From the IMG/VR virus record IMGVR_UViG_3300008111_000005, positions 32,001 through 96,000 of that record: 64,000 nucleotides of DNA, one strand, 5' to 3'. Origin of the DNA: a virus. Numbering within the stretch: position 1 is the first letter of the stretch; each line of letters starts with the position of its first letter. This document shows, one piece after another, positions 1,880 to 64,000 of the stretch. Below the pieces are notes generated by a model. The model was not told the DNA's origin. It did no database searches and worked only from the letters and a program-made list of their open reading frames with translations. The position numbers were made by a program, and so were the translations under genes.

Positions 1880-2895
1880 ATAGAGGTAACCTGTTCGTTA
1901 ATCCAGTGATATGTTTTGGTAATGCCGTCAACCAATGGAGAATTTGGCTCCCAATTGAGGTGTTGACGAATTAACCGATTGTCAGAGGAACGTCCACGAA
2001 CCCCTAACGGACCTGGAATATGATTAATAGTTAACTTCTTACCAGCGATTCCCATAATCATATAAGCAAAATCGTTAATTGAAATCATTTCTTCCGAACC
2101 GATATTAACAGGACCAGTAAAATCTGAATGGGTTAACCGTAAGATGCCTTCGACACATTCATCTACATAAAGGAATGAACGGGTTTGCTTTCCGTCACCA
2201 AACATATCAATTGAACCACCTTCTGGTGTCTGCGCAATCTTTCTGCACATCGCAGCGGGTGCCTTTTCACGCCCACCTTCCCATGTCCCTTCTACACCAT
2301 ATACATTATGGAAACGAGCAATGCGTGGTTCTATGCCGAAGTTACGCTTGTACGACATATACAATCGTTCACTGAATAATTTTTCCCACCCATATTCACT
2401 ATCTGGGTTTGCTGGATATGCTGAACTTTCTTCACAGTTTGGATTATCTGGGTCTAACTGGTTATGCTCTGGATAGATACACGCCGATGACGAATAGAAT
2501 ACTCGTTTTAATCCCAACGTCACCATTGCTTTCAATGTATTTAAATTGATTAACGCCGAGTTGGTCATTACATTTGCGTCATGCTCACCAGTAAAGATGT
2601 ATGATGCTCCACCCATATCAGCAGCTAATTGATATACTTCGACATCGGTACGGCCCAAACTTAATGCGTTCAAGCATGTTTGATAATCCGATAAATCTCC
2701 GTGTACAACATCGTCTGCAAATGTGTTTACATCACAATGTTCTGGAAGTTTAATATCTGCCACACGAACCCAGTAACCTTCTTTCTGTAATCGTCGTGCG
2801 AGGTGGTGGCCTATAAAACCACAACCACCGAGTACCACAGCGACTTTATCCGCTGTGCTCAGTGGTTTTTTACTAACGTTACCTTCTTCTGTCAT
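1876..2895 (-). CDS. NAD-dependent epimerase, GDP-mannose 3,5-epimerase-like (extended SDR)
   Basis: GGCGFIG, QLAADMGG, YSSSACIYP, YGWEK (YxxxK), GGREKAPAAMCRK match the GME-like subfamily. Confidence 0.88.
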   Translation of the reverse strand: MTEEGNVSKKPLSTADKVAVVLGGCGFIGHHLARRLQKEGYWVRVADIKLPEHCDVNTFADDVVHGDLSDYQTCLNALSLGRTDVEVYQLAADMGGASYIFTGEHDANVMTNSALINLNTLKAMVTLGLKRVFYSSSACIYPEHNQLDPDNPNCEESSAYPANPDSEYGWEKLFSERLYMSYKRNFGIEPRIARFHNVYGVEGTWEGGREKAPAAMCRKIAQTPEGGSIDMFGDGKQTRSFLYVDECVEGILRLTHSDFTGPVNIGSEEMISINDFAYMIMGIAGKKLTINHIPGPLGVRGRSSDNRLIRQHLNWEPNSPLVDGITKTYHWINEQVTSI

Positions 2896-2919
2896 GTAAC
2901 CCTTCCTATTGTATTAGTT

Positions 2920-3066
2920 TTATTCTTTTGCTACTGCTACGTGCTTACCAGTACAGATGTAGTACCAAACAGTCCACCATTCTTTTTCTGGTATATATCT
3001 TTTTAAGTTTATTCTATCTTGTTTTGATTCCGTTAATGGGTGTTCTGTTATAACATTATTCCCCAT
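2920..3066 (-). CDS. Small hypothetical protein (48 aa)
   Basis: Own translation MGNNVITEHPLTESKQDRINLKRYIPEKEWWTVWYYICTGKHVAVAKE; fills the gap on the coding strand. Confidence 0.4.
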   Translation of the reverse strand: MGNNVITEHPLTESKQDRINLKRYIPEKEWWTVWYYICTGKHVAVAKE

Positions 3067-3439
3067 ACATATTCTCCGTTACTTTTTCTTCTGTCTTTAA
3101 CACAGTTTTCTTAATGAATACTTCACGTAACGTAGATATCTTCGTTAATAAATAGGTTCGATAGGGTCTGTCACCAACGAAATTTGAGTTTTTGAAACGG
3201 TCGTAAATTACCTGAGTATCAGTTTCATCACCAATCAATTTAAATATTTGACCAAGTTTTTCTGGTGTTAGAGAACCCAGTGACAAAGCGTGCATTTTAC
3301 CTTCCCAATTGGGATTGAGTACGAGTGCATATTTCTGCTCATTATCGTAGGTAAACTGCACCACTTTGCCAGTAGTCAAATCTTTTTGAGAAACGAAAGT
3401 ACGAACACCTAATGTACCTTTATACCCTTCTATTGCCAT
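3056..3439 (-). CDS. Hypothetical protein
   Basis: 127-aa ORF, TAATG-coupled to the upstream glycosyltransferase. Confidence 0.7.
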   Translation of the reverse strand: MAIEGYKGTLGVRTFVSQKDLTTGKVVQFTYDNEQKYALVLNPNWEGKMHALSLGSLTPEKLGQIFKLIGDETDTQVIYDRFKNSNFVGDRPYRTYLLTKISTLREVFIKKTVLKTEEKVTENMYGE

Positions 3440-4746
3440 TAGTTAATCTTCTTTAATGTTGGAAGAACCAATTTAGTTTCAACGGAAAATTGTGGAACAT
3501 ATTTGTCTAACAACTCAACTGTTCTGTTAAAAATAGTTTGATACGAGAACTTCTTAACATTTTGTTTTGCTAACAACTGTGCCTTCTTTTTAAAATTACT
3601 GTAATTCTTAAATACGGCGTACATTGCGTTTGCTGATTGGTTCATATCAGGAGCGAACCACGTAGACTCCCGAATCAATACACCGTCCCACACAGAACTT
3701 TCGTGGATAGGTTTGAGTTCACCACCAATTAGTAATGAATTGTCTTTATCCAAGAAATCAAGTTGACCACTCCATCCAGATGCGATTACGGGTTTGCCAC
3801 TAATTGATGCTTCAAGTAATGGTCTACCAAACCCTTCACCCTTGGTTAAACTTACGTGTGCTTTTACCTTTGAGTGGTTATATAAAGAATTCATTTCTTT
3901 GTCTGTTAACTCACCATGCAATAAATAAATATTCGGCATGCTCTGTCCAACGTTCAAAGTAACAGATTTCTTGATTTGTTCTATTTTCTTTAATATATCT
4001 TCTCTGTCCAAGATAGAAAATCCAGCACTACTAGTTTTTAAAATAAGCGCAGGCTTTTCTTTTTCTGGAATTTGTCGGAATGTTTCAAGGAATATTTTCA
4101 CCAACAGTGCAACATTCTTACGGTCCTCTCCAAATTCACCACGGAGCCAGTGACCAACGAAAAGATAACAGAACTTCTCTGGGATGCTATCCAATGTTTC
4201 TCGTATTTTTGGCTCTAAATTAAAATCATATTCGATTTTTTTAAATATGTTATTGTCAATACAATTGTGTAATACTTCAATTGGTTTGGTGACTGCTAGT
4301 TCACCAATGATATTACCTTGTTGATTTTGCTGTGAGTACTTTGAGAAATGAAAAACATTCTTTGAGTGTTCGGAAATAGTCAGTACTAAATCCATTTTAT
4401 TACATGCTTGTATCCATTCAGCAGAAGCCACGGTGGTTTCAATGCCGGCGGTTATACCGATATTGTACTTTCCTAACGGTTCAAATTCTGTTGGGATGGT
4501 AATTGTAACATACAATGATGGTTGTGGTAATTGTCCACCACGAATGATTCTATCCAAAATCATTTTGTCCTTTGGATTAGTTTCATCCAGTGCATTCATA
4601 GGAGTATCACCCCACGGTACACTGTGCACCTTCACATCAAACTTATCCCATTCAATGATGTGACGGATAATGTCTCTACTCATATCACCATAACCAGAAC
4701 GAGTCTGGCATGGTGCTCTAACTATACATAACGGTTTGCCTGTCAT
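3439..4746 (-). CDS. GT-B (GT4-like) glycosyltransferase
   Basis: TRSGYG at N-terminus; RKNV; GEGFGRPLLEA (EGFG...E); SGWSGQLDFL. Confidence 0.85.
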   Translation of the reverse strand: MTGKPLCIVRAPCQTRSGYGDMSRDIIRHIIEWDKFDVKVHSVPWGDTPMNALDETNPKDKMILDRIIRGGQLPQPSLYVTITIPTEFEPLGKYNIGITAGIETTVASAEWIQACNKMDLVLTISEHSKNVFHFSKYSQQNQQGNIIGELAVTKPIEVLHNCIDNNIFKKIEYDFNLEPKIRETLDSIPEKFCYLFVGHWLRGEFGEDRKNVALLVKIFLETFRQIPEKEKPALILKTSSAGFSILDREDILKKIEQIKKSVTLNVGQSMPNIYLLHGELTDKEMNSLYNHSKVKAHVSLTKGEGFGRPLLEASISGKPVIASGWSGQLDFLDKDNSLLIGGELKPIHESSVWDGVLIRESTWFAPDMNQSANAMYAVFKNYSNFKKKAQLLAKQNVKKFSYQTIFNRTVELLDKYVPQFSVETKLVLPTLKKIN

Positions 4747-4747
4747 A

Positions 4748-6148
4748 TTATGCCTTCACCAAAGTAAAACGTTCCCGTGGGGTCCAATTATCCCACGCAT
4801 TTTCCATATGTTCGATAAATAATTCACACATACGTTCTGCCGTAAATTGTCCAGCTCCAAGTGCGTATTGACGACCCAACTCACCACGGCGTTTACGTTC
4901 CTCACGCGACATCTTATACACTTCCATTATCTTCTCCGCTGCTTCTTCCCACGAACAACGGTCATCAAAAATGTACGGGGTCAACGGAGAACCTTGTAAA
5001 GAACGACTTACTGGAAATAATGGGAATGCCCATTCACCGTGATTCTTGAAACGTCCATCGTGATTACTACCCCAATCATAATTGAAATCACGTTCAGGGT
5101 CAAGGTACTCACCTTCATCATTTGTGAATCCACACTGGTCTTGCAATCCACCCGTGACATTAACAATGATTGGTGTACCAGCAACTAGACTTTCACACGT
5201 ACCCAAACCAAAACCTTCATTACTAGACATATTAATGGTAACGTCTGCGATGTTATACAGAATGTTGATATGCTTCGATTCGATGCGTTCGTTTGAGAAA
5301 ATAACATACTTTTCTAATTCTGGCATTACGTCACGAATCACCACAGGTAAGTCAGTACCGTGTTCATCAACGGGTTGTGTATGTAATACAAGACGGCACT
5401 TTGAACGTTCTTCTTCTGGTAGCTTTTTCATAAACGTGTTAAATGCCAACAGAATATCCGATGTCATCTTTCTACGAATATTTCTACTATTGTAGAACAC
5501 TACATATTTAACGTCTTGACCGTTAAACAATCGTTCACGAACTTCCAAGAGTTCTTTGTCATCTTCTGGTAGTGGATGGAACTTCTTTGTATCAATTCCA
5601 TGTGGAATGTAGGATAGTGACCACGGAGCACGTGGTTCCTTTCTTGATACGTGCTTTACGATATTGTAGGTTTGTTTACTAATACATCCAATCCAATCAT
5701 CGGAACGATAATAATTTTCATTATAGAATGGATACGGAAGGTCATCCCAAATAGCGTAGAAGAACATAGGAATCTTTTGACGAATCTCATGCTCAATCTG
5801 ATATAACCAAATCCAATATCTTGGGTCTGTGAAATGGAGAATAGCATCTGGCTTTTCTAATTCTATTAACTGACGAATCAATCTACTGTCACCGTATCCA
5901 TTATAGGGAACAATCTTAACACTAGCGTCAGTCAATCCAACTTCATTATTAATTGCGTCGGACATATCAATCATTTTACCGGCCTCAGGATGAGAAACCG
6001 CTGCACCTACCTGTACCCAATTAAATCTATGCGAAGTTCCTTCAATTATTTCACGGGACATAACACCAACACCTGATGTTACTCGCATATCGTCTGAGAG
6101 GAATAAAATCTTCTTACGTTGTTCTTTTGGAATATAACCGTGTTTCAT
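4748..6148 (-). CDS. GT-B (GT4-like) glycosyltransferase
   Basis: SGVG, IPHGID, RNIRRK, SSNEGFGLGTCESL, TGGLQDQ. Confidence 0.85.
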   Translation of the reverse strand: MKHGYIPKEQRKKILFLSDDMRVTSGVGVMSREIIEGTSHRFNWVQVGAAVSHPEAGKMIDMSDAINNEVGLTDASVKIVPYNGYGDSRLIRQLIELEKPDAILHFTDPRYWIWLYQIEHEIRQKIPMFFYAIWDDLPYPFYNENYYRSDDWIGCISKQTYNIVKHVSRKEPRAPWSLSYIPHGIDTKKFHPLPEDDKELLEVRERLFNGQDVKYVVFYNSRNIRRKMTSDILLAFNTFMKKLPEEERSKCRLVLHTQPVDEHGTDLPVVIRDVMPELEKYVIFSNERIESKHINILYNIADVTINMSSNEGFGLGTCESLVAGTPIIVNVTGGLQDQCGFTNDEGEYLDPERDFNYDWGSNHDGRFKNHGEWAFPLFPVSRSLQGSPLTPYIFDDRCSWEEAAEKIMEVYKMSREERKRRGELGRQYALGAGQFTAERMCELFIEHMENAWDNWTPRERFTLVKA

Positions 6149-6172
6149 CTAAACTCCTATAATATTTTTATT

Positions 6173-7270
6173 TTAAAATGCTATAATTTCACTGCCACCA
6201 CCACCTCCACCGCCACCACCACTATCTCCGTGTTGTATGTAGGTATCTGTGTGTGGAATTATTTCCGTATCGGAATGAGGAATGTCTGAGTGTGGTACAT
6301 ATGTGTCATTATGAACTGGTGTATCCGTATGCTGTGTGTCGGTGTGTTGCACCTGTGTATCATTATGCACCGTATCGTTGTGTGATGTATCTGCGTGTGT
6401 TGTGTCGTTGTGTGTGGTATCCGCGTGTTGAACAACAACGGTATCTAAATGCCCAGCTGCTCCATCAGCACCAGGCGTCCCTGCTGCACCGGCAGGTCCT
6501 GGTGGACCTGGTGGACCTGGGGTCATAGCCCTATCCAACGCTGCTTGTGCTGATTGTGCCGCTGCAGCTGCGGAAGCCGCTGCAGCTTGAGCCGTTGCAA
6601 GGGCTTGTTGTGCTAATGCACGTACAGGAGCAACTTGTGATTCTACGTACGCTACAATTCTACGCCAATACGGACCATCAAGATATTCATAAATTGGTGT
6701 ACCGACATCTTCTGCAAATATTCTGTTACCTTTTTTTGCCGTAGAATCTTCACGGGTACGTTGTGCTTGTGGAACGAATTTCGCATTTAAATGCGTTTCA
6801 ATCATATCATTCAATTCGTTATTTGTTCTGAATAATTGACCCGTTGCCTGTGTTAACGTAGGTGTTTGTGGTGGTGTAACCGTTACCGGAGTAGTATCCG
6901 TTACGGGTTGTGGTATTTCTTGTGCAGGTGTAAACGATTGTGGTGGATAGAAATTGGCACCAATACCCTTGTCAGGCAACAATCGTAGGTATACACCACC
7001 TGGAGCGATTTCATCATAATCACCAGTGAACAATCCACTTCTGTATGCATTGAATAGTTCCTCTGCATCAACATAGTCTGGATTAATGAACACCCAACCA
7101 CCCGAAGTTGTTGCGGTACTTAATACGTTGGCTGGTAAATTATTTAATTTACGAGTTTCCTCTGCACGTTCTGGTGTAATTACTATACGGCTGTATTTGC
7201 CAGAATTAAATTCGGCTACATCCCCGGCTCCAGCCGCAAAATATATATCTTGTTTTGTTGGTATAGCCAT
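6173..7270 (-). CDS. Putative virion/fibre protein: Ala-rich coil, short collagen segment, 13 H-x-D repeats, poly-Gly tail
   Basis: AQAAAASAAAAA, GPPGPPGPAGAAGTPGADGAAG, then HLD/HAD/HND/HTD/HSD/HGD motifs and a Gly9 run before SEIIAF. Confidence 0.75.
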   Translation of the reverse strand: MAIPTKQDIYFAAGAGDVAEFNSGKYSRIVITPERAEETRKLNNLPANVLSTATTSGGWVFINPDYVDAEELFNAYRSGLFTGDYDEIAPGGVYLRLLPDKGIGANFYPPQSFTPAQEIPQPVTDTTPVTVTPPQTPTLTQATGQLFRTNNELNDMIETHLNAKFVPQAQRTREDSTAKKGNRIFAEDVGTPIYEYLDGPYWRRIVAYVESQVAPVRALAQQALATAQAAAASAAAAAQSAQAALDRAMTPGPPGPPGPAGAAGTPGADGAAGHLDTVVVQHADTTHNDTTHADTSHNDTVHNDTQVQHTDTQHTDTPVHNDTYVPHSDIPHSDTEIIPHTDTYIQHGDSGGGGGGGGGSEIIAF

Positions 7271-7279
7271 ATAATTCTC

Positions 7280-7444
7280 TTATAAAGTGATACTACCGGA
7301 CATACTAGAAGAAATAAAATTAGACCATAACTTTTCTGTAATGGTACTTGCAACAAACCCGTTAAGTTTACAAAACTCACGAATGTGTTGATTTATTTCT
7401 TTCGTAATTTGCACGGTAGTATATGAATATTTATCTTTTCTCAT
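7280..7444 (-). CDS. Small ribbon-helix-helix-like DNA-binding protein (54 aa)
   Basis: Own translation MRKDKYSYTTVQITKEINQHIREFCKLNGFVASTITEKLWSNFISSSMSGSITL; strand-helix-G-helix pattern. Confidence 0.5.
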   Translation of the reverse strand: MRKDKYSYTTVQITKEINQHIREFCKLNGFVASTITEKLWSNFISSSMSGSITL

Positions 7445-7467
7445 GTTTGACCTTTTCTATAACCTTC

Positions 7468-7475
7468 TATAAATA
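7468..7475 (-). promoter_or_regulatory. TATTTATA motif (candidate phage late-promoter element)
   Basis: Exact TATTTATA on the coding strand about 24 nt before ATG 7444; recurs at 54107, 54120 and 61475. Confidence 0.45.
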
Positions 7476-7479
7476 GTGG

Positions 7480-8157
7480 TCAAACTGCCAAAAGTTCGTT
7501 TATATCCAAAATTCTATATGTCATTCCCTTAACAACCCTATGCATATGTCCTGAATAAACCATAGGTGTTCCCAGTGCATGCCATAAAGTTTCAATCTGC
7601 TTCTGCGTCGGATCTTCCCAATCCAATCCCACATCAAATTGAAGTTTTGCGGAGTTATCAAAATGTTCTTCGATAACACTGTTGGGTGGGCAATGCGTAA
7701 TAAACATATCAATAGTCTTACCCTCTGCATTATTCAGCATACGAGTATATTGTTCATCACTGATAAGTTCGTTTTCATCCCAATGCATTCCGTCCGCCAA
7801 TCTCCACTTTTTGTCAATGGATGCTGCACCACCCATAAATGCGATGGTCCGACCATCCAACTCCATTACTGTTCCACGAGGAATATAATAGAATGGAATG
7901 TCTGGATATACTTGTGAGACTTCCGTGTAACTAATCCAACGGGTGCAATCATCGTGGTTACCATCAATAAAATACACGGGAACTGATGACCTATTCAATA
8001 CATTTTTAAATTGCTCTTCATTATCCATTCCATGTCCACGGAACAAACAAAAATCACCGACTTGAATAATGGCAGCGGCACCGACTTGTCCAGCTAAATC
8101 AATAGCTCTCTCCATTACTTTGTAATCACCGTGAATATCACCTAATAGTAAAATCAT
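7480..8157 (-). CDS. Calcineurin-like metallophosphoesterase
   Basis: GDIHG, VGDF, DGNHD, THCPP, GHMH. Confidence 0.9.
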   Translation of the reverse strand: MILLLGDIHGDYKVMERAIDLAGQVGAAAIIQVGDFCLFRGHGMDNEEQFKNVLNRSSVPVYFIDGNHDDCTRWISYTEVSQVYPDIPFYYIPRGTVMELDGRTIAFMGGAASIDKKWRLADGMHWDENELISDEQYTRMLNNAEGKTIDMFITHCPPNSVIEEHFDNSAKLQFDVGLDWEDPTQKQIETLWHALGTPMVYSGHMHRVVKGMTYRILDINELLAV

Positions 8158-31653: not shown

Positions 31654-32004
31654 TTATGCGGAAAAACTACTTCCACATCCACATTTAGCAGTAGCGTTTG
31701 GATTTTTAAAGGTAAACCCAGATCCCATCATGTCTATGACATAATGAACCAATGTACCATTTAAGTAAGAGCTGGAAAAGGGGTCTATGACAATCTTCAA
31801 TCCATTTTCCTGCTCTACAACAACATCATCCTCTTCTGGATTATCAATGATATTGAAGTTATACTTAAATCCCGAACAACCACCAGGTAATACCGAAATA
31901 CGGAAATATTCACTATTTTCCGCTTCGGAAAACTTTTTCATTTCACCCAATGCCGCGTTGGTGAAGGTAATACTAAAATCAGCCGCCTGTTGAACCGAAT
32001 CCAT
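31654..32004 (-). CDS. iscA: A-type Fe-S carrier (IscA/SufA/ErpA, HesB family)
   Basis: GGCSGFKY, F.NPNA..KCGCGSSF. Confidence 0.9.
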   Translation of the reverse strand: MDSVQQAADFSITFTNAALGEMKKFSEAENSEYFRISVLPGGCSGFKYNFNIIDNPEEDDVVVEQENGLKIVIDPFSSSYLNGTLVHYVIDMMGSGFTFKNPNATAKCGCGSSFSA

Positions 32005-56247: not shown

Positions 56248-57720
56248 TTATACCTTACGTTTAAAGAGTTGCGCCATATCGTCTTGACGATGGATTAATT
56301 TACCTTCCGGTTCCCATTCTTGGTCAAGACCAGTGACCTTCATAATATTATCAATCGAACCATACTGCTGTGTCCAATCACAGGTCAGATTAATTAACAA
56401 TAGGTCTGTCTTTTCATAAAGTTGCTTACGAACTTGTTCTGCTACTATCTTTGTTGTTTCCAACAATCGACCTGGCATTAGGAGAACCAGACTGTATGCT
56501 TTTTCATTCCACGTATGTAAGTCAAATATACTACCCATTGTAAAGATTCCCCAATGGATTGTTGTTGCTGCCGACATACAACGTTGCTTATCCATTTCCA
56601 CACCATGCGGAATTAAATCTTGTCTATCTCCCACCACACGACCTAACAAGACACCATTACCACACCCAAGGTCAAGCACATTTCCACTTGGAATATACTT
56701 CATATCTCCAACTGCATCAAGAATAACTTGATGGAAATGATCCATTGCACCCTTGTTACTAAATCCGTTCTCTTCCCAAACAGAAGTATCTTCCAACGAC
56801 TTAGCAAAGGATAGAGTCTTAGTAATAGGTTTAATTTTAGTTTTCTTTTGGTTATACGGATATGTAATACCCGACATACCATCTTCTGGATATGAATGAC
56901 TGAGCTTTTGTACCGTGTATTTCCACGGTGTCATATCTGTACGTGATGATATCTTATTGATTGGGGTACGAATTTCCGCGATGCCGTGCAACGCTGACCA
57001 TTCCACGGGCCACGAAAGAATTTCATAAATCCAATCAATTTCCTTATTATATCCAAGTGTACGACCAAGTTCTGCCATTTTCATACCAAGTTCTTCTGTT
57101 GCTTTACAATCAAATGAACATGGAAGATGTGAGACTAGTCGAATACCCTGCCACCGCCAAAGAATATTGGATTCTGGTGGAGTGTCTGCATTAATATGAA
57201 TAGTGTGATCGTTGTCGGTTAACGTCAGCTTATCAGCTGCCATTGTCCACGTAGAATCTACATATCCTTGGTTTACCCAATATTTGTTGAAATGTTCAAT
57301 ACAACATGTAGGGTATCCAAGTAATCTTCCCGCTTCACGGTCACGAATAGATGATGGGGAATTCCATATACTGAACCATTCTTCAGCCAATCGTTCTGAC
57401 TTTGTAAAAACAACTCGTATATTATAATCTCCACCAGCATATGGAATTGTAGTAGAGGAATATTGCCCAGTAATTCCTTCCTTTGCCAAGGCAACAATTT
57501 TTACACCATACTTACCATACTCTTCTTGCAACGACATCAATTCCGATGGACGGATGATATCTAGTGCAGATGGTCGAATGTCATGAACCACAGACATACG
57601 TTCTATATGTCTCCATGCACTGGAAATTGCCGAAATAATCGGTTCGTATTTATTTTTGTTTTCCATACTCGTCCACTGCACACGAGTCCAATCTGGTAAA
57701 ACGTGTTTAATTCTTTGCAT
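56248..57720 (-). CDS. DUF483-like Cys-motif domain fused to a class I SAM methyltransferase
   Basis: GRLLGYPTCCIEHF and HLPCSFDC; C-terminal VLDLGCGNG and GVEMD. Confidence 0.7.
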   Translation of the reverse strand: MQRIKHVLPDWTRVQWTSMENKNKYEPIISAISSAWRHIERMSVVHDIRPSALDIIRPSELMSLQEEYGKYGVKIVALAKEGITGQYSSTTIPYAGGDYNIRVVFTKSERLAEEWFSIWNSPSSIRDREAGRLLGYPTCCIEHFNKYWVNQGYVDSTWTMAADKLTLTDNDHTIHINADTPPESNILWRWQGIRLVSHLPCSFDCKATEELGMKMAELGRTLGYNKEIDWIYEILSWPVEWSALHGIAEIRTPINKISSRTDMTPWKYTVQKLSHSYPEDGMSGITYPYNQKKTKIKPITKTLSFAKSLEDTSVWEENGFSNKGAMDHFHQVILDAVGDMKYIPSGNVLDLGCGNGVLLGRVVGDRQDLIPHGVEMDKQRCMSAATTIHWGIFTMGSIFDLHTWNEKAYSLVLLMPGRLLETTKIVAEQVRKQLYEKTDLLLINLTCDWTQQYGSIDNIMKVTGLDQEWEPEGKLIHRQDDMAQLFKRKV

Positions 57721-57738: not shown

Positions 57739-58095
57739 TTAAATCTTCAGCTTACTTTTTTCTTCTGCAATAATCTGTTGCAAAAATGCCTTCCACGAAT
57801 TTCCAGCAGTAGCCTGTGCTGTGTCGGTATCCGTACTTACTACTCCAAACTTGGCTTCATACGCTTCACGATACCGACCAGTTTCATCAACGTGGTCTGC
57901 ATGTCCGTTTGTCATATCAAACTCTTCACCAACAATTGTTTGTGATGTAGTTACTACTGGTACGGATTCGGTATCTCGAAATTCTTCTGGAATTTCCTTT
58001 AATATTCCCTTTTCCAAAAGTTCTTTTACTACTTCGAACTTTTGAGCGTAAGCTCCCGATGAGTCTACATGGTCAGCATGTAATCCTTGAATCAT
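57739..58095 (-). CDS. Small acidic protein with two HADHVD motifs (rSAM partner or substrate candidate)
   Basis: LHADHVDSSGAYAQKF and GHADHVDETGRYREAYEAKFG; GAGG RBS. Confidence 0.75.
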   Translation of the reverse strand: MIQGLHADHVDSSGAYAQKFEVVKELLEKGILKEIPEEFRDTESVPVVTTSQTIVGEEFDMTNGHADHVDETGRYREAYEAKFGVVSTDTDTAQATAGNSWKAFLQQIIAEEKSKLKI

Positions 58096-58115: not shown

Positions 58116-59429
58116 TTAAGGTAAAAATCCATATTGTTCGTTAAACTCTTTTGAATATCGTCCTGTTTCGTCTGTATGATCGGCGTGTGGTATTTTACCA
58201 CCGTTTTTCATTACGATTTTTTGTTGTTTGATAAACTTATCAATATCAAACTGTCCTTCCAAATATCGTTTAATCTGCGCCAATCGTAACTCAACACCTT
58301 GACTGTATCCGTACATCAATGCATCTTCGTATTTTTGTCTATCTGGATGTAGTGACAATGGTGTTTCTCCTTTATGCACCATTAACTTTTCAAATATACC
58401 GAATGCCACTTTCCAATTCAAGCAGGTGTCTGTACGATTTCTCCAATCCATATCAATACCTGTACCAGGACAATGTGCCTTACAAGTTAAGAAGAAACGA
58501 CATCCTTGACATCCACCGTGTTCCTGCGGTGTGTGGTATAACGCCATTTGACGTTCAAATCCATCATATTGGGCTTTAATCCAATTAATACCTTCTTTAT
58601 TTCCACGACCACAATTTGCTTGGTTTCCTTGTGAATCAATACCTTGCACTGCGTGGGTAGTATATGGGTCACACGATAAGAAGGTACATGTTGCATTATT
58701 ATCTTGTGCCTTTAACATATCTTCTACGTCACGGAAAATATCGAATCGAAATGACCGTTTACCAGGACCATTTAATTCATTAATTTCAAACTCCCACATA
58801 TCCAGTAAGAATTCAATATTTTGTTCTGGTGTTAACGCAAGTGATTCCCCAATTGAACTGTGGTCAATTTCTAACGGATGGAGGCGAGCGCCATCAACAC
58901 CCCACGATTGAAGTTCTTTTACCCATGCCTTAAATCGGTCACGGTATTTTGGAAGTCCATTCTTTTTGTGAACAGTGATAATTAAACCAAGAGAAATTTT
59001 ATTAGCTAATAGTTTCTTAATTGCTTCAAATGATTTACGAGTAGCTTCTCTGGTTTTTTCCAATGACCCCGCCCAACGAGTATCATTCATTTCATCGGGT
59101 CCGTCGAGGGACACACCAACGTGAACGTTATACTTCTTGAACATTTCAATGTGGCGGTCGGTGATTAAAACACCATTTGTTTGGATACCATTTGCTTTAT
59201 AGCGTTCGTATCCCCACTTAAAAATAGTTTCTAAATCGTCAATATCAGTTAATAATGGTTCACCACCAAATAGAGTAAAGTTACCACCCTCTTTGGCCAA
59301 ACCTTCTAACATTTTTTCAACAGAATATGTTTTTTGACGGAAGTTACCCGCGTCACGCATAGGATGTTCGTAACAATACGGACAACTTAAATTACATACT
59401 ACTCCAACTGGTTCCAATTCAATCGTCAT
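58116..59429 (-). CDS. Radical SAM enzyme with SPASM domain (anSME/peptide-maturase type)
   Basis: CNLSCPYC, FGGEPLL, IQTNG, VSLDG; SPASM cysteines CTFLSC...C...CQGC.....C...C...C. Confidence 0.92.
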   Translation of the reverse strand: MTIELEPVGVVCNLSCPYCYEHPMRDAGNFRQKTYSVEKMLEGLAKEGGNFTLFGGEPLLTDIDDLETIFKWGYERYKANGIQTNGVLITDRHIEMFKKYNVHVGVSLDGPDEMNDTRWAGSLEKTREATRKSFEAIKKLLANKISLGLIITVHKKNGLPKYRDRFKAWVKELQSWGVDGARLHPLEIDHSSIGESLALTPEQNIEFLLDMWEFEINELNGPGKRSFRFDIFRDVEDMLKAQDNNATCTFLSCDPYTTHAVQGIDSQGNQANCGRGNKEGINWIKAQYDGFERQMALYHTPQEHGGCQGCRFFLTCKAHCPGTGIDMDWRNRTDTCLNWKVAFGIFEKLMVHKGETPLSLHPDRQKYEDALMYGYSQGVELRLAQIKRYLEGQFDIDKFIKQQKIVMKNGGKIPHADHTDETGRYSKEFNEQYGFLP

Positions 59430-59493: not shown

Positions 59494-60264
59494 TTATGGA
59501 CCAACAAATACTGGTTGGTCACTATGTGGTGTGGTATTATCTGTATGAGCAGCGGGAGTAGTGTTATCGGTGTGTGCAGCCGGTGTGGTATTATCCGTAT
59601 GAGCAGCGGGAGTAGTGTTATCGGTGTGCGCAGCCGGTGTGGTATTATCCGTATGTGCTGCTGGAGTCGTATTGTCCGTATGTGCTGCATTGATAGTAGT
59701 ATTTGTGTGTGCCGCGGCAATGTCTGTGTGGCTGGTAGCAATGTCTGTGTGACTCGCTGGTGTGGTATTGTCCGTATGTGCTGCGTTGGTAGTATTATCC
59801 GTGTGTGATGCGTTAATAGTGGTATCAGTATGTGCTGCTGGCGTGGTGTTGTCGGTGTGTGCAATGTTAGTGTGGGATGTAGCAATATCAGTATGAGATG
59901 TTGCTATATTCGTGTGGGATGTTGCGATGTCGGTATGCGCAGCATTCGTAGTGTTGTCTGTATGTGATGCGTTAATAGTGGTGTTAGCAAACGCAATATT
60001 CGTGTGTGAATTTCCAGTGTAATTGTCTGTGTGCGCAGCTGCGATATTAGTATGCGATGCAGCAACATTGGAATGTGGTGTAGTGCTGTTACTAAACGCA
60101 ATATTACTGTGTGCAATATCGGAATGTGAAGATATTGTCGCAATATTACTATGCGCAATATCTGTATGTGCTGACGACGCAGCGGCATTACCGTGTGCGA
60201 TATTTGTATGTGATCCAGCCACATTGCTATGACCGCCGGGAGAATAACTATCGGAATGTGCCAT
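59494..60264 (-). CDS. [H/F]-x-[D/N] repeat protein B (256 aa, 33 motifs)
   Basis: Almost entirely HTDNTTPAA, HTDIATS and HTNIA units; AGGA RBS. Confidence 0.88.
   Translation of the reverse strand: MAHSDSYSPGGHSNVAGSHTNIAHGNAAASSAHTDIAHSNIATISSHSDIAHSNIAFSNSTTPHSNVAASHTNIAAAHTDNYTGNSHTNIAFANTTINASHTDNTTNAAHTDIATSHTNIATSHTDIATSHTNIAHTDNTTPAAHTDTTINASHTDNTTNAAHTDNTTPASHTDIATSHTDIAAAHTNTTINAAHTDNTTPAAHTDNTTPAAHTDNTTPAAHTDNTTPAAHTDNTTPAAHTDNTTPHSDQPVFVGP
59521..59690 (-). repeat. 27-nt coding tandem repeat (HTDNTTPAA, about 6 copies)
   Basis: Units differ at synonymous positions. Confidence 0.85.
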
Positions 60265-60281
60265 AAAATATTATTCCTGAA

Positions 60282-61442
60282 TTATGAGCAGAGTTCGTTG
60301 GTACCACCACATACTTGATAATTAGAACACGCTAGGTAATAAAAACAACCCGAACATGTAACCAAATTGATACCATCACATACACTAGTACCATCGGTGC
60401 AACAATAATTATTTGTATGAGAGGCATTTGCCGTACTGTCTTGGTGGGATATTGAAGTATTAGTGAATGCAATATTATTATGCGCAATATCAGAATGTGA
60501 AGATATCGCCGCAATATTACTATGTGCTATATCCGTATGTGCGGAAGAAGCTGCAATGTTACTATGCGCAATATTAGTATGTGCCGCAGCGATATTTGAA
60601 AAGTTTGTAGTACTATCCGTATGACCTATTGATGTATTCGTATGTGCTGCGTTGGTAGTACTATCCGTGTGTGCGATATTTGTATGTGAATTTGGTATAT
60701 AACTGTTTGTATGTGCAGCAGGTATTGTACTATCGGTATGCGGAATTGTGGTATTCGTGTGTGGTATTGTGGTGTTGGTATGTGGAACTGTGGTATTGAC
60801 GAACGCAATATTTGTGTGAGCTGCTGGTGTGGTATTGTCCGTATGTGCTGCATTGATAGTAGTATTTGTATGTGCTGCGTTGATAGTAGTATCTGTATGT
60901 GCTGCTGGTATCGTAGTATTTGTGTGAGGAATAGTGGTATTTGTGTGTGGAGTTGTATTATCTGTATGTGATGATGGTGTGGTGTTATCTGTATGTGCAG
61001 CAATCGTGGTATTGTCTGTGTGTGCAGCAATTGTTGTATTATCGGTGTGTGCAGCAATCGTGGTATTATCGGTGTGTGCTGCGTTGATAGTAATATCAGT
61101 ATGTGCTGCTGGAGTGGTGTTATCGGTGTGTGCCGCAGTTACGTCGGTGTGACCACGAATTTCACTACCTGTACCAGAAATCCAATGCCAAAAAGTACTT
61201 TCAACCCACACAGAACCAGCCTTTGCACCTGCCGCAGCACCTAAGTTTGTATATGCAATTGTACGGTCAACCCCTGTAGCGGAGATATAATGGAAATCAT
61301 TTCCATCTACCCACACCGATCCAGGTTTAGCTCCCGCTGGTGATGTACCGGCGGTACCAGTATAATAATATTCATTTCCCGAGCCGTCTATGAAACGAAA
61401 CGTTTCACCATCAACCCAGATACTACCAGGTGCCTTTGGCAT
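60282..61442 (-). CDS. [H/F]-x-[D/N] repeat protein A (386 aa, 33 motifs) with a 3x GSxWV N-domain and an 8-Cys C-terminal tip
   Basis: PGSIWVDG/PGSVWVDG/AGSVWVES repeats, HTD array, YCCTDGTSVC...ELCS. Confidence 0.88.
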   Translation of the reverse strand: MPKAPGSIWVDGETFRFIDGSGNEYYYTGTAGTSPAGAKPGSVWVDGNDFHYISATGVDRTIAYTNLGAAAGAKAGSVWVESTFWHWISGTGSEIRGHTDVTAAHTDNTTPAAHTDITINAAHTDNTTIAAHTDNTTIAAHTDNTTIAAHTDNTTPSSHTDNTTPHTNTTIPHTNTTIPAAHTDTTINAAHTNTTINAAHTDNTTPAAHTNIAFVNTTVPHTNTTIPHTNTTIPHTDSTIPAAHTNSYIPNSHTNIAHTDSTTNAAHTNTSIGHTDSTTNFSNIAAAHTNIAHSNIAASSAHTDIAHSNIAAISSHSDIAHNNIAFTNTSISHQDSTANASHTNNYCCTDGTSVCDGINLVTCSGCFYYLACSNYQVCGGTNELCS

Positions 61443-61474
61443 ATATTAAAATCTCCACATAACGATAACTTTCA

Positions 61475-61482
61475 TATAAATA
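61475..61482 (-). promoter_or_regulatory. TATTTATA motif before repeat protein A
   Basis: Exact copy about 33 nt upstream of ATG 61442, followed by GGAG. Confidence 0.45.
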
Positions 61483-61485
61483 GAG

Positions 61486-62349
61486 TTATACACAAGTAAA
61501 TGTTCCTAAACAACCAACTGGCCGTGCTGCACATACTACTGCGTAGACACTACTATTGGGATTTGTATAAAAATTTGACCCAGATGATGGACTACCATCG
61601 GCACAAGTTACATATCCTGCGGGACACGATGCATCCACACCACGAGTTCCTTGTGGACCTGTTGGTCCTTGTACACCAGTAATTCCCTGTACTCCAGCCG
61701 ACCCCGTGGATGCCGCTGGTGCAGAAATACCTGTAACTCCTACAACACCCGTTGCTCCTTGTGGTCCCGATGGTCCTGTTGCACCCGCTGTGGGTAATCC
61801 TACAACACCACCTACACCCGTAGCACCCACCACGTTTGTTAATCCCGATGGTCCTGTTTGTCCAATAATTCCTGTTATACCAAGAATTCCTTGAATACCT
61901 GTTGCACCTGTTGGTCCTGTTGCACCCGTTGCGCCTGTTGACCCAGACACTAGTGAACCGATACCTGTAGCACCCGTTGGTCCTGTAATACCAATAGACC
62001 CCGATGCTCCTGTTGGCCCTGTTGGTCCCGTAGACCCAGTAACACCAGTTGGTCCAATAACTCCTGTTGGCCCTGTTGGTCCTAGTGGTCCTGTTGGTCC
62101 AGTTGGACCTGAGGTAGTTAATCCCGTTACCCCAGATACTCCTGTTGGTCCAGTAGACCCAGACCCAGCTATACCTACCAAACCAATTGGACCTGTTGGA
62201 CCTCTATCACCTATAACTCCTGTTGCACCAGGTCCATATGATGCGGTTAATACATTTACTCCCGCAGCGTATGTTGCAGTAAATGCTAAATTACTATATA
62301 ATGCAACGCTTGCAGTAGTTGGTGTACCAAGTGGAAAAAATGTGGTCAT
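61486..62349 (-). CDS. Collagen-like fibre protein with Cys-rich C-terminus
   Basis: G-x-T triplets (GPT/GAT/GIT) with interruptions; 5 Cys in the last about 46 aa. Confidence 0.88.
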
Positions 62350-63908
62350 AGGAATGCGTTACTGTGAGCGGCAGCGACATTTGAATGTGCTGCGGTGATA
62401 TTGGAGAAATTGGTGGTATTGTCTGTATGTGCGGCGGTAATATCCGTGTGTGCTGCGGTTATATCCGTGTGTGCTGCTGCAATGTTACTATGTGCAATAT
62501 TTGTGTGTGCTGCTGCAACATTTGAAAATGCGATGTTACTGTGTGCGATATCAGTATGTGATGCGTTGGTAGTATTATCAGAATGTGATCCTGGTGTAGT
62601 ACTATCAGTAAATGGAATATCGGTATGTGACGACGGTGTAGTACTATTTACGAATGCCGCATCGGTATGCACACCTATTATATCACTGTGATCATTAAAT
62701 GGACTACATGGTGTACCAGATGGACAAGAAGAATATCCGAAATAAAATAAACATCCAGGCCCCGCATCACCATCTAAACAATAAACACCAGTCGCTGCAT
62801 CATCACCATGCCCGATTGTACTGTCCGAATGTGGTTGATCAGTATGTGAGGCCGGCGTGGTACTAGATATTGCCGCAATATTAGTATGTTCTGTGTTAAT
62901 AGTAGTATTTGTGTGTGCTGCGTTAATAGTACTGGAACTTCCCGCAATATTTCCGTGTGAAATATTTGAATGTGGTGTGGTACTAGTAATTCCAGCAATA
63001 TTGGTATGTGCTGTATAATTGTTTGTGTGTGGTATTGTGATATTTGTAAAGTTTGTAGTACTGTCGGTGTGTGCTGCAGTAATATTAGAATGTGGTGTAG
63101 TACTATCACTATGTGGGACCGTAATATCGGAATGTGTTTGATTACATGATCCCGTGACGAAAAATGCAGCTCTTCCCGCAGCACCTTGTGGTCCTGTTGG
63201 ACCGACTGGCCCAGAAGGACCGGTAATACCTGTAACACCAGCGGAACCGAAGGTATTAGGACCACTAATACCCTGTGAACCTGCTGCACCCGTTGCTCCT
63301 GTTGGTCCTACTGGTCCTGTTGCTCCAGCACTACCAGATGGACCGATTGGCCCCGTAGAACCAACTGGCCCCACACCTGTTGGTCCTGTACTACCTTGTG
63401 GTCCTGTTGGACCTGTTGAACCTGTTGGTCCAGTTGCTCCAGCAACACCCGCTACACCACCAAATATACCAACACTACCTGTTGGACCTGTTGCACCAAT
63501 TGCCCCTGTTGGACCTGTTATACCTCGACTACCTGTTGGTCCCGTAACACCGATTACACCAGTGCTACCAGTTGGACCTGTTGGACCCGTGGGGCCTGTA
63601 GATCCTGTGATGCCACTTGGTCCAGTTGGACCTGTTGACCCAGATGTTTGTGGTCCAGTTGATCCTGTGGGTCCAGTTATACCGATAGAGCCGGACACGC
63701 CAGTTGGACCTGTTGGACCTGTTGGCCCCGTTGCTCCTGTTGGTCCTAGTGGTCCTGATGGTCCTGTAAATCCACCTATAGCGAACGATGCAGTAGCATA
63801 TCCAGACCCACTATTTACCGCAACTGACGCTGTAAACGTCAGTACACTTGCAGATAATGCGAATGAACTAGTAGTTGGTGTTCCGTATGGGAAAAACTTA
63901 AACGTCAT
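62346..63908 (-). CDS. Collagen-like fibre protein with C-terminal H-x-[D/N] hairpin and Cys loop
   Basis: About 200 aa of G-x-T, then 13 His motifs, a 4-Cys loop and 13 His motifs. Confidence 0.88.
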
Positions 63909-63923
63909 AACACTTACTCTCTA

Positions 63924-64000
63924 TTACGGTGTATTTGCACCTGTTGGTCCTGTTGCTCCTACTGCACCTGTTGGTCCTGTTGCTCCCGTAGCACCCGTAG
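63924..64000 (-). CDS. 3' end of another collagen-like gene (partial)
   Basis: ...[24 protein letters not shown]. Confidence 0.75.
   Translation of the reverse strand, partial: TGATGATGPTGAVGATGPTGANTP

Follow-up and report, generated by a model that had tools for sequence, protein, structure and literature searches.

In triceptides, a radical SAM (rSAM; SAM, S-adenosylmethionine) enzyme links the ring of an aromatic residue to the C-beta of the residue at +2. The published links are Phe-C4 to Asn-C-beta (XncB and OscB), Trp to Asn or Asp (OscB), Tyr-C3 to Asp (YxdB) and Phe to Ser (MscB), together with His-C2 to Ala, Arg or Lys (HaaB, YhhB and HtkB, of which HtkB takes a His-to-Phe substrate) (PMC11002830, PMC11499958). 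Among phage fibres, T4 gp37 binds seven iron ions via HxH motifs (PMC11705849). In the Thermus phages Cumys and phiMa, an 'rSAM module' was reported for which a role in DNA modification was proposed, and the triplet array that concerns us here was left undescribed (Viruses 2024, PMC11437467). We analysed a window of 64,000 nucleotides (positions 32,001 to 96,000 of the 104,871-base virus record IMGVR_UViG_3300008111_000005) in which three proteins, here called A, B and C, carry long arrays of aromatic-x-[D/N] triplets; the genes of this region all lie on the minus strand. We found that the arrays mirror one another in their spacings, that Phe takes the place of His under rules that reach across the pair, and that the arrays travel with the gene of an rSAM/SPASM enzyme, of which the triplets are most likely the substrates. 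The array-bearing proteins and their parts are, in the order of transcription:

62346-63908, minus strand: protein C, 520 aa, first in transcription order, a collagen-like Gly-X-Y region followed by an array
about 63165-63773, minus strand: collagen-like Gly-X-Y region of C (Collagen PF01391, E 1e-22)
62802-63134, minus strand: outgoing half-array of C
62700-62801, minus strand: Cys-containing turn of C
62358-62699, minus strand: returning half-array of C
60282-61442, minus strand: protein B, 386 aa
61152-61442, minus strand: N-terminal domain (N-domain) of B, residues 1-97, three beta repeats, AlphaFold2 predicted local distance difference test (pLDDT) >92
60411-61151, minus strand: array of B, 33 triplets
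60282-60410, minus strand: Cys-rich C-terminal end of B
59494-60264, minus strand: protein A, 256 aa, array throughout (59518-60258, 33 triplets), C-terminus HSDQPVFVGP

Together the arrays of A, B and C hold 98 aromatic-x-[D/N] triplets. Every array His is part of an H-x-[D/N] motif (31 in A, 30 in B and 26 in C), and all 11 array Phe residues are likewise followed at +2 by Asp or Asn, against an Asp/Asn background of 19.3% in the arrays (binomial p = 1.4e-8). Ten of the 11 sit on the lattice, with spacings of 5, 7 or 9 on either side of each. The initial annotation had proposed that Phe replaces His in register in all three proteins (as FSN, FTN, FVN, FAN and FTD on a 5/7/9 lattice) with D/N kept at +2, and had placed this pattern at 59494-63134. 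Our counts bear this out, and the coordinates are exact to the base (63134 is the first base of the C His259 codon), though the kept residue is mostly Asn rather than Asp (Asn in 10 of the 11 Phe triplets). In C, apparent spacings of 12 and 14 conceal three degenerate triplets (G306-I-T, G323-S-S and A346-I-S), and the register is preserved. The arrays of A and B lack Cys, Leu and Glu, have no Lys or Arg in A and one in B, and are written essentially in H, F, T, S, D, N, A, I, P, G and V; in C, Cys is confined to the turn and is absent from the arrays.

The His codons CAT/CAC and the Phe codons TTT/TTC differ at two bases, so each swap amounts to two base changes. In orthologues, lattice positions do carry Tyr (TAY), the codon intermediate, and never Leu. 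In a strain with a 98%-identical protein A (L002:9166-9933), AIS replaces FSN at A57-59; the two proteins differ at four residues, three of them within this triplet, and the change resembles a whole-triplet swap, perhaps a conversion between repeat units. The triplet thus acts as a unit, because the +2 Asp/Asn goes when the ring goes. Could the Phe residues be mere accidents in a biased repeat, or the open reading frames (ORFs) unreal? The alphabet is indeed very small, and ORFs overlap in other frames. This explanation has a vanishingly small probability; it is already refuted by the binomial test and by the homologue scan, the His-column alignments and the grammar of 160 arrays described below, the conserved homologues include an N-domain that folds with confidence and a fusion to collagen, and dozens of loci show the pattern again.

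With protein B as the query, a full HMMER scan gave 297 relatives, and the grammar statistics were taken from 160 non-redundant arrays (22,444 residues). In these arrays, the +2 residue is Asp or Asn for His in 98% of cases, for Phe in 72%, for Trp in 43% and for Tyr in 42%, compared with at most 14% for any other residue, and offsets 1, 3 and 4 show no D/N coupling. At +2, Asn outnumbers Asp after Phe (314:103), whereas Asp is the preferred residue after His and Tyr. The lattice position is occupied by His, Phe, Tyr and Trp in any mixture: among the arrays of relatives, P0126 is all Phe, P0019 and P0144 are mostly Tyr, and P0137 and P0088 combine Trp with His (single-protein scans of viral contigs for P0019, P0137 and P0126 gave no match). 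In the alignments of orthologues, the His columns contain H 276 times, F 36 times, Y 4 times and other residues 14 times, and a further 24 Asn are slips of the register by two residues; the ring position is never Leu, Ile or Met. Read from these arrays and alignments, the family-wide grammar is an aromatic ring with Asp or Asn at +2. The initial annotation had named just this requirement, and it stands because non-aromatic residues do not freely replace His, the aligned columns going mainly to Phe or Tyr. Its suggestion that the odd spacings reflect a geometric rule of beta-strands did not hold, as spacings from 3 to 9 are all present in relatives, with 4 the second commonest in the 160 arrays and 3, 6 and 8 in common use as well.

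The swap is nearly complete in one orthologue. Encoded directly upstream of a 48%-identical rSAM enzyme (L083:8196-9983), it has 2 His, 43 F-x-[D/N] and many F-x-[Q/S/T] triplets, and it retains the N-domain and a C-terminal HVDQPVYVGP. In this protein (from the same contig as L128), FVNTG, FGNTP, FAQTP and FAST units stand for nearly every His, the +2 position loosens to N/Q/S/T and a Cys-containing loop interrupts the array; the mirror test described below failed on it under a motif definition that admits D/N only. Because one orthologue is almost wholly Phe, metal ligation by the ring cannot be a general requirement. The interchange of His, Phe, Tyr and Trp would also fit a core aromatic position in a plain structural repeat, with a buried aromatic core and Asp/Asn as a turn or ladder former, without metal or modification, in which case the enzyme linkage would be inherited synteny. 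Asn ladders are common in beta-solenoids, and many of the loci that we compared come from related phages. The exclusion of Leu, Ile and Met from the ring position counts against a plain repeat, as do three observations given below (the avoidance of Phe-Phe rungs, the reach of the enzyme linkage and the motif tails of the enzymes), and we regard it as improbable.

The spacings of the paired arrays are mirror images of each other. When the first half of the C array (259-367) is compared with the reversed second half (407-515), all 16 spacings are equal with the three degenerate triplets counted, and when B (98-342) is compared with reversed A (3-247), both of which span 244, 28 of 32 spacings match. 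The forward comparison gives only 4/16 for the halves of C and 10/32 for B and A (permutation p < 1e-5). Orthologous B/A pairs mirror-match at 47/47, 44/44, 38/40 and 44/44 spacings, nine more metagenome loci do so about as well (eight of them completely), and single chains can be palindromic (51/51 in L008 and 20/20 in L009). Even in distant members, among them a Chengkuizengella prophage and gene 13 of Thermus phage Cumys, hairpin palindromes exceed shuffled-spacing nulls. At the level of sequence, such a mirror register argues for antiparallel ladders. As A and B are encoded on one DNA strand, DNA inversion is ruled out as the cause, which points to selection for in-register antiparallel pairing. 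By these comparisons the conserved rule is the mirror symmetry of the paired strands, not odd spacing. In the ESM Atlas, the best match was a gp37_trimer cluster with a score of 0.83, which is chance level.

Aligned in this register, the Phe triplets of the window take the following places:

60094..60096, minus strand: A Phe57 (FSN), faces B His288 (HTN)
59989..59991, minus strand: A Phe92 (FAN), faces B His253 (HTN)
60801..60803, minus strand: B Phe214 (FVN), faces A His131 (HTN)
60600..60602, minus strand: B Phe281 (FSN), faces A His64 (HSN)
60465..60467, minus strand: B Phe326 (FTN), faces A His19 (HTN)
63048..63050, minus strand: C Phe287 (FTN), faces C His487 (HTD)
within 62406..62699, minus strand: C Phe419 (FVN), faces His355
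within 62406..62699, minus strand: C Phe433 (FTD), faces His341
within 62406..62699, minus strand: C Phe461 (FSN), faces His313
within 62406..62699, minus strand: C Phe501 (FSN), faces His273
within 62406..62699, minus strand: C Phe404 (FND), beside the turn, the one Phe off the lattice

All 10 lattice Phe face a His, and so does every degenerate triplet in A, B and C; the Phe of the window are too few for significance by themselves. In the ladders of four relatives, in which about one third of the rings are Phe, there are 1, 0, 0 and 0 Phe-Phe rungs against 3.8-5.1 expected (p 0.005 to 0.00015), and nine further B/A ladders have 0-2 against 4.4-7.8 expected (p ≤ 0.0025 each). This avoidance is the opposite of what the hydrophobic core of a plain repeat predicts. 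Counted over seven ladders, the rung types are:

FxN facing HxN: 114
HxD facing HxD: 50
HxD facing HxN: 38
FxN facing HxD: 22
HxN facing HxN: 10
FxN facing FxN: 2
FxD facing HxN: 1

The Asp:Asn ratio is thus 138:54 on His facing His and 22:114 on His facing Phe (Fisher p = 2e-24). The effect persists within 7-residue units (p = 3e-7), which makes it more than an artefact of unit type. By these counts the Phe swap is a coordinated change of about three residues over two strands, from H,D facing H,D to F,N facing H,N, and it would look as if a composite site of four residues, charged or metal-binding, had been lost. An arrangement of independent His-Asp pairs within each rung was considered and rejected; it predicts F-x-D facing H-x-N, but F-x-N is nearly universal in the clade. 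Taken by themselves, the ladder and its rung rules are in our judgement very probably correct as read from these sequences.

The initial annotation had preferred ring chemistry or stacking to a purely metal-binding role. The almost all-Phe orthologue speaks for that preference; the confinement of Phe to one strand of a rung and the change of both Asp to Asn speak against it. To conclude 'not metal' is therefore too strong, and the His/Asp rungs probably do something that the Phe/Asn rungs do not. Indeed, a one-sided Phe with Asp to Asn on both strands, fitting a lost composite charged site, is also what might be seen if the fibre were a needle that works by metal alone. Such a needle would be a trimeric out-and-back shaft in which His, with Asp in the second shell or as co-ligand, binds axial metal and Phe/Asn are metal-free fillers, and the rSAM enzyme and its DUF483 partner would act elsewhere (on another target or, as has been suggested for the Thermus phages, in the modification of DNA) and not on the triplets. 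At the level of sequence, a trimer is suggested by the collagen fusion and out-and-back strands by the mirror register, and the iron of T4 gp37 provides a precedent. However, the arrays contain no HxH, the HxH motifs of gp37 are not mirror-paired, and non-ligating arrays that are all Phe or dominated by Tyr, Trp or Phe still keep the grammar and the rSAM neighbour. The gene linkage also bears on this explanation. The genes concerned follow protein A in the window:

58116-59429, minus strand: rSAM/SPASM enzyme, 437 aa, begins 64 nt past the stop codon of protein A
57739-58095, minus strand: small protein, 118 aa, with two copies of a HADHVD..G.Y piece shared with the enzyme tail
56248-57720, minus strand: DUF483-like Cys-motif domain fused to a class I methyltransferase

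The enzyme has a CxxxCxxC motif (C12/C16/C19) and a SPASM motif (C307xxC310x5C316x3C320), which are invariant, and no N-terminal recognition element of the kind found in systems for peptides made on the ribosome and modified after translation (RiPPs) (RiPP recognition element, RRE). We examined the 25 best of the 58 NCBIfam families that matched it; among these the best matches are the anaerobic sulfatase-maturating enzyme (anSME), DynA, YhhB, AmcB and GrrM/OscB, all far under their curated cut-offs, which puts the enzyme outside every named family. The structure of the triceptide synthase ChlB is matched by sequence (E 8e-8) in the N-terminal part of the enzyme. Homologues number 1535 at E ≤ 1e-10 and are found in phages, prophages and some bacteria and archaea. 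Many carry the motif themselves: 76 of 112 enzyme homologues (P0151-P0270) end in at least two H-x-D triplets, e.g. HGDSHGDHTDHGDSPHGD, and the tail of the window enzyme (58116-58200) ends PHADHTDETGRY, carrying HADHTD. Possible roles of this tail are docking on an unpaired array strand, metal binding and action as a self-substrate. Two fusions were seen among the homologues. In one (L091:9989-11668), an rSAM orthologue (38% identical) is fused to six tandem HGDHTDxALVEGIVDRP repeats and directly follows a 378-aa array protein in which HSDVA and FVNS units alternate. In the other (L028:3658-5658, from a Leptospirales metagenome-assembled genome), rSAM and DUF483 form a single protein of 667 aa, with no array within 10 kb.

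Orthologues of the rSAM enzyme with 31-100% identity have arrays within a few kb, in viral contigs, Acidobacteriota, Gemmatimonadota, Granulicella, a Firmicute and a haloarchaeon. As a control, 50 loci with unrelated rSAMs (3398 ORFs) contained zero arrays. A search led by the N-domain, and hence independent of the enzyme, found 69 metagenome loci with arrays; 28 of these have at least 2.5 kb downstream, and in 25 of the 28 the rSAM gene is next downstream, often abutting the array stop codon. The linkage endures at 31-48% enzyme identity despite altered gene order (array upstream or downstream), and a DUF483 homologue lies beside the rSAM gene in all but five of the tabulated rSAM-orthologue loci. 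These linkage data favour the array protein, rather than DNA, as the target of the enzyme. That the rSAM gene directly follows 25 of 28 independently found arrays, and that most enzymes of the family bear an H-x-D tail of their own, argues against a metal-only needle, which we consider unlikely. The motif tails, and a linkage held to such low identity in phages, an archaeon and several phyla of bacteria, similarly argue against inherited synteny next to a plain repeat. Bacterial H-x-D arrays without the phage N-domain were also seen downstream of rSAM-DUF483 (L025:12730-13485 and L023:12777-13367, from Gemmatimonadota and Acidobacteriota), and the twin-arginine-like signal of the former (RRGLIRAG...) suggests a secreted, non-phage use of the system.

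If the enzyme acts on the arrays, does it link residues within a strand or across the ladder? In the second case it would join a ring to the C-beta of an Asp/Asn that belongs to the opposite strand, and so zip up the hairpin, or A with B. Sactipeptide hairpins (e.g. thurincin H) have nested cross-strand bridges, and the exact mirror register, in which i+j is constant, resembles them; moreover, a SPASM enzyme is encoded next door and the identity of a ring covaries with the +2 residue of the strand opposite. However, no known rSAM enzyme links a ring to C-beta across strands or between polypeptides, the arrays lack Cys donors, and the coupling of i to i+2 within a strand (98% for His) exceeds any cross-strand coupling. 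We rate covalent cross-strand rungs as quite improbable, slightly more so than the plain repeat. An intrachain link has a closer precedent. F-x-N is, as the initial annotation had stated, a known triceptide cyclophane motif (Phe-C4 to Asn-C-beta, XncB and OscB; PMC11002830).

What we observed in these loci is the grammar of the motif, the mirror register, the rules of the rungs and the linkage of the genes. In the model that we propose, in which the fold, the cross-link and the metal are inferred, A, B and C would be phage fibre proteins whose arrays are rows of units composed of an aromatic ring, any residue and Asp/Asn. The rows would pair antiparallel and in register, with B running out, A returning and two triplets in each rung; C would fold back on itself, probably as a trimer because of its collagen-like domain. 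Phe would be a selected alternative to His, placed in this phage lineage on one strand of a rung only; H-x-D/H-x-D and F-x-N/H-x-N are the dominant rungs, and mixed H-x-D/H-x-N rungs are also common. The triplets would most likely be substrates of the adjacent downstream rSAM/SPASM enzyme, acting with its DUF483 partner, for which the best precedent would be the triceptide cross-link from ring to C-beta at +2, a chemistry that accepts His, Phe, Tyr and Trp. A metal ion or a charged network of His and Asp is probably also present in the His/Asp rungs, of which the Phe/Asn rungs would be the neutral version. The chances of this combined model, which joins a ladder with ring links made by the enzyme within each chain and gives the His/Asp rungs a role in charge or metal, seem to us evenly balanced. 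We put forward more tentatively, as a possibility with the odds somewhat against it, a mirror-coded two-strand virion fibre in which about 100 triplets are each covalently cyclised by a phage rSAM enzyme and two kinds of rung are interchangeable, His/Asp bearing metal or charge and Phe/Asn neutral.

Several observations weigh against the combined model. The enzyme scores 39-74 bits against cyclophane-synthase families with cut-offs of 310-450 (XyeB, GrrM/OscB, FxsB, YhhB, AmcB and DynA), these matches span residues 11-160 only, and the closest full-length solved structure is anSME (PDB 4K36-4K39, E 6e-11, residues 3-320). The three exceptions among the 28 array loci form one lineage (L163-L165) with no rSAM gene within 4-9 kb downstream. 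No array lies within 10 kb of six bacterial rSAM-DUF483 loci, which is also a point in favour of the metal-only needle; a hidden Markov model search for N-domain/array proteins elsewhere in five array-less bacterial genomes found none, in a search that had no positive control. An intrachain cross-link alone explains neither why Phe faces His nor why both Asp change to Asn, distant members have Tyr-Tyr rungs, and the all-Phe orthologue violates the rule of one His per rung. The compared phages are related, and the rung p-values are therefore not from independent lineages. Finally, in AlphaFold2 predictions of B with 42 homologues only the N-domain folded, the array having a pLDDT of about 45, and the C array predicted as a single sequence had a pLDDT of 44; both are uninformative on the array fold.

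A virion fibre with each triplet cyclised in this way would mean RiPP-type cross-linking at protein scale, used for making structural material. Cross-linked triplets would be the first case of triceptide-type rSAM chemistry on a structural virion protein, about 100 times over, instead of on small peptides that are secreted. The rung rule for Phe and His would be a readable sequence code for the zipping of two chains or two chain halves. Phe/Asn and His/Asp rungs also provide natural built-in mutants for comparing chemistry and metal binding.

Further features of the locus fit around these genes. Between C and B lies one more gene:

61486-62349, minus strand: collagen-only paralogue without an array, with a Cys-rich end

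Another collagen-like paralogue (63898-64000) continues past the window edge, and a SNF2-type helicase is the last gene of the region in transcription order. PHROG tail-fibre families match C across its collagen part and reach into the array; tblastn of protein C against cultured phages gave no match, probably owing to low-complexity filtering. The N-domain of B consists of three GS(I/V)W(V/I)xGxx(F/L)H(Y/F)(I/V)DxxGxE hairpin units. It is also found on the array-less proteins P0027, P0092 and P0131, and in a fold search its best PDB match (Z 4.2, the beta-prism lectin LlpA) was not significant. In the L163-L165 lineage (about 2700-7700), the N-domain arrays (45 His) are accompanied by a second array, and neither rSAM nor DUF483 was found within 4-9 kb downstream.

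Finally, we compared the system with those already known. The tip of T4 gp37 is part of a phage fibre and a trimeric out-and-back needle (PMC11705849). The arrays may have a comparable antiparallel out-and-back arrangement in a trimer, with periodic His that could line the axis. A difference is that gp37 uses HxH from one strand per level, whereas the present arrays, which contain no such motif, combine His with Asp/Asn, admit Phe, Tyr or Trp as well and are accompanied by an rSAM gene. Pfam gave no match to gp37 domains among the window proteins, and as the seven HxH motifs of gp37 are not mirror-paired, the likeness is architectural only. With anSME the phage enzyme shares the SPASM domain and, if it acts on the arrays, a target that is a protein, not a short peptide. 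anSME works by abstraction of a C-beta hydrogen. With TIGR03942, whose cut-off is 349 bits, the phage enzyme reaches a score of 76 bits, and the Cys/Ser-x-Pro/Ala-x-Arg sulfatase-maturation motif is absent from the arrays. The bridges of sactipeptide hairpins share the mirror register, but the Cys donors that they use are absent from the arrays here. The His-Xaa-Ser (HxsA-D) system also combines an HxS repeat protein with rSAM enzymes, HxsB and HxsC; it was not among the best 25 of the 58 NCBIfam matches of the enzyme, and the arrays had no NCBIfam match.

Triceptide systems are alike in their aromatic-X-X motifs, often repeated, in the use of all four aromatic residues and in a substrate gene that adjoins a SPASM rSAM gene (about 360-390 aa, without an N-terminal RRE). 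In contrast to these, the array proteins are putative fibre proteins of 256-520 aa with 33-100 motifs and a collagen or beta N-domain, without leader, protease or exporter; neither H-x-D nor H-x-N is a characterised motif; the obligate partner here is a DUF483 protein; and the two-strand mirror code with its rung rules is unknown in RiPPs. The phage enzyme lies under every curated family cut-off. The locus as a whole has a counterpart in Thermus phage Cumys, which has the same gene triad, with Cumys_13, the rSAM enzyme Cumys_12 (46% identical) and the DUF483 protein Cumys_11. Cumys_13, annotated as hypothetical, consists of the N-domain and about 75 H-x-D triplets with the C-terminus HADQPVRG; because it is nearly all His/Asp, Phe substitution and the rung rules are invisible in it. 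In this phage, a cultured representative of the system, the triad immediately follows the baseplate and tail-collar fibre genes.

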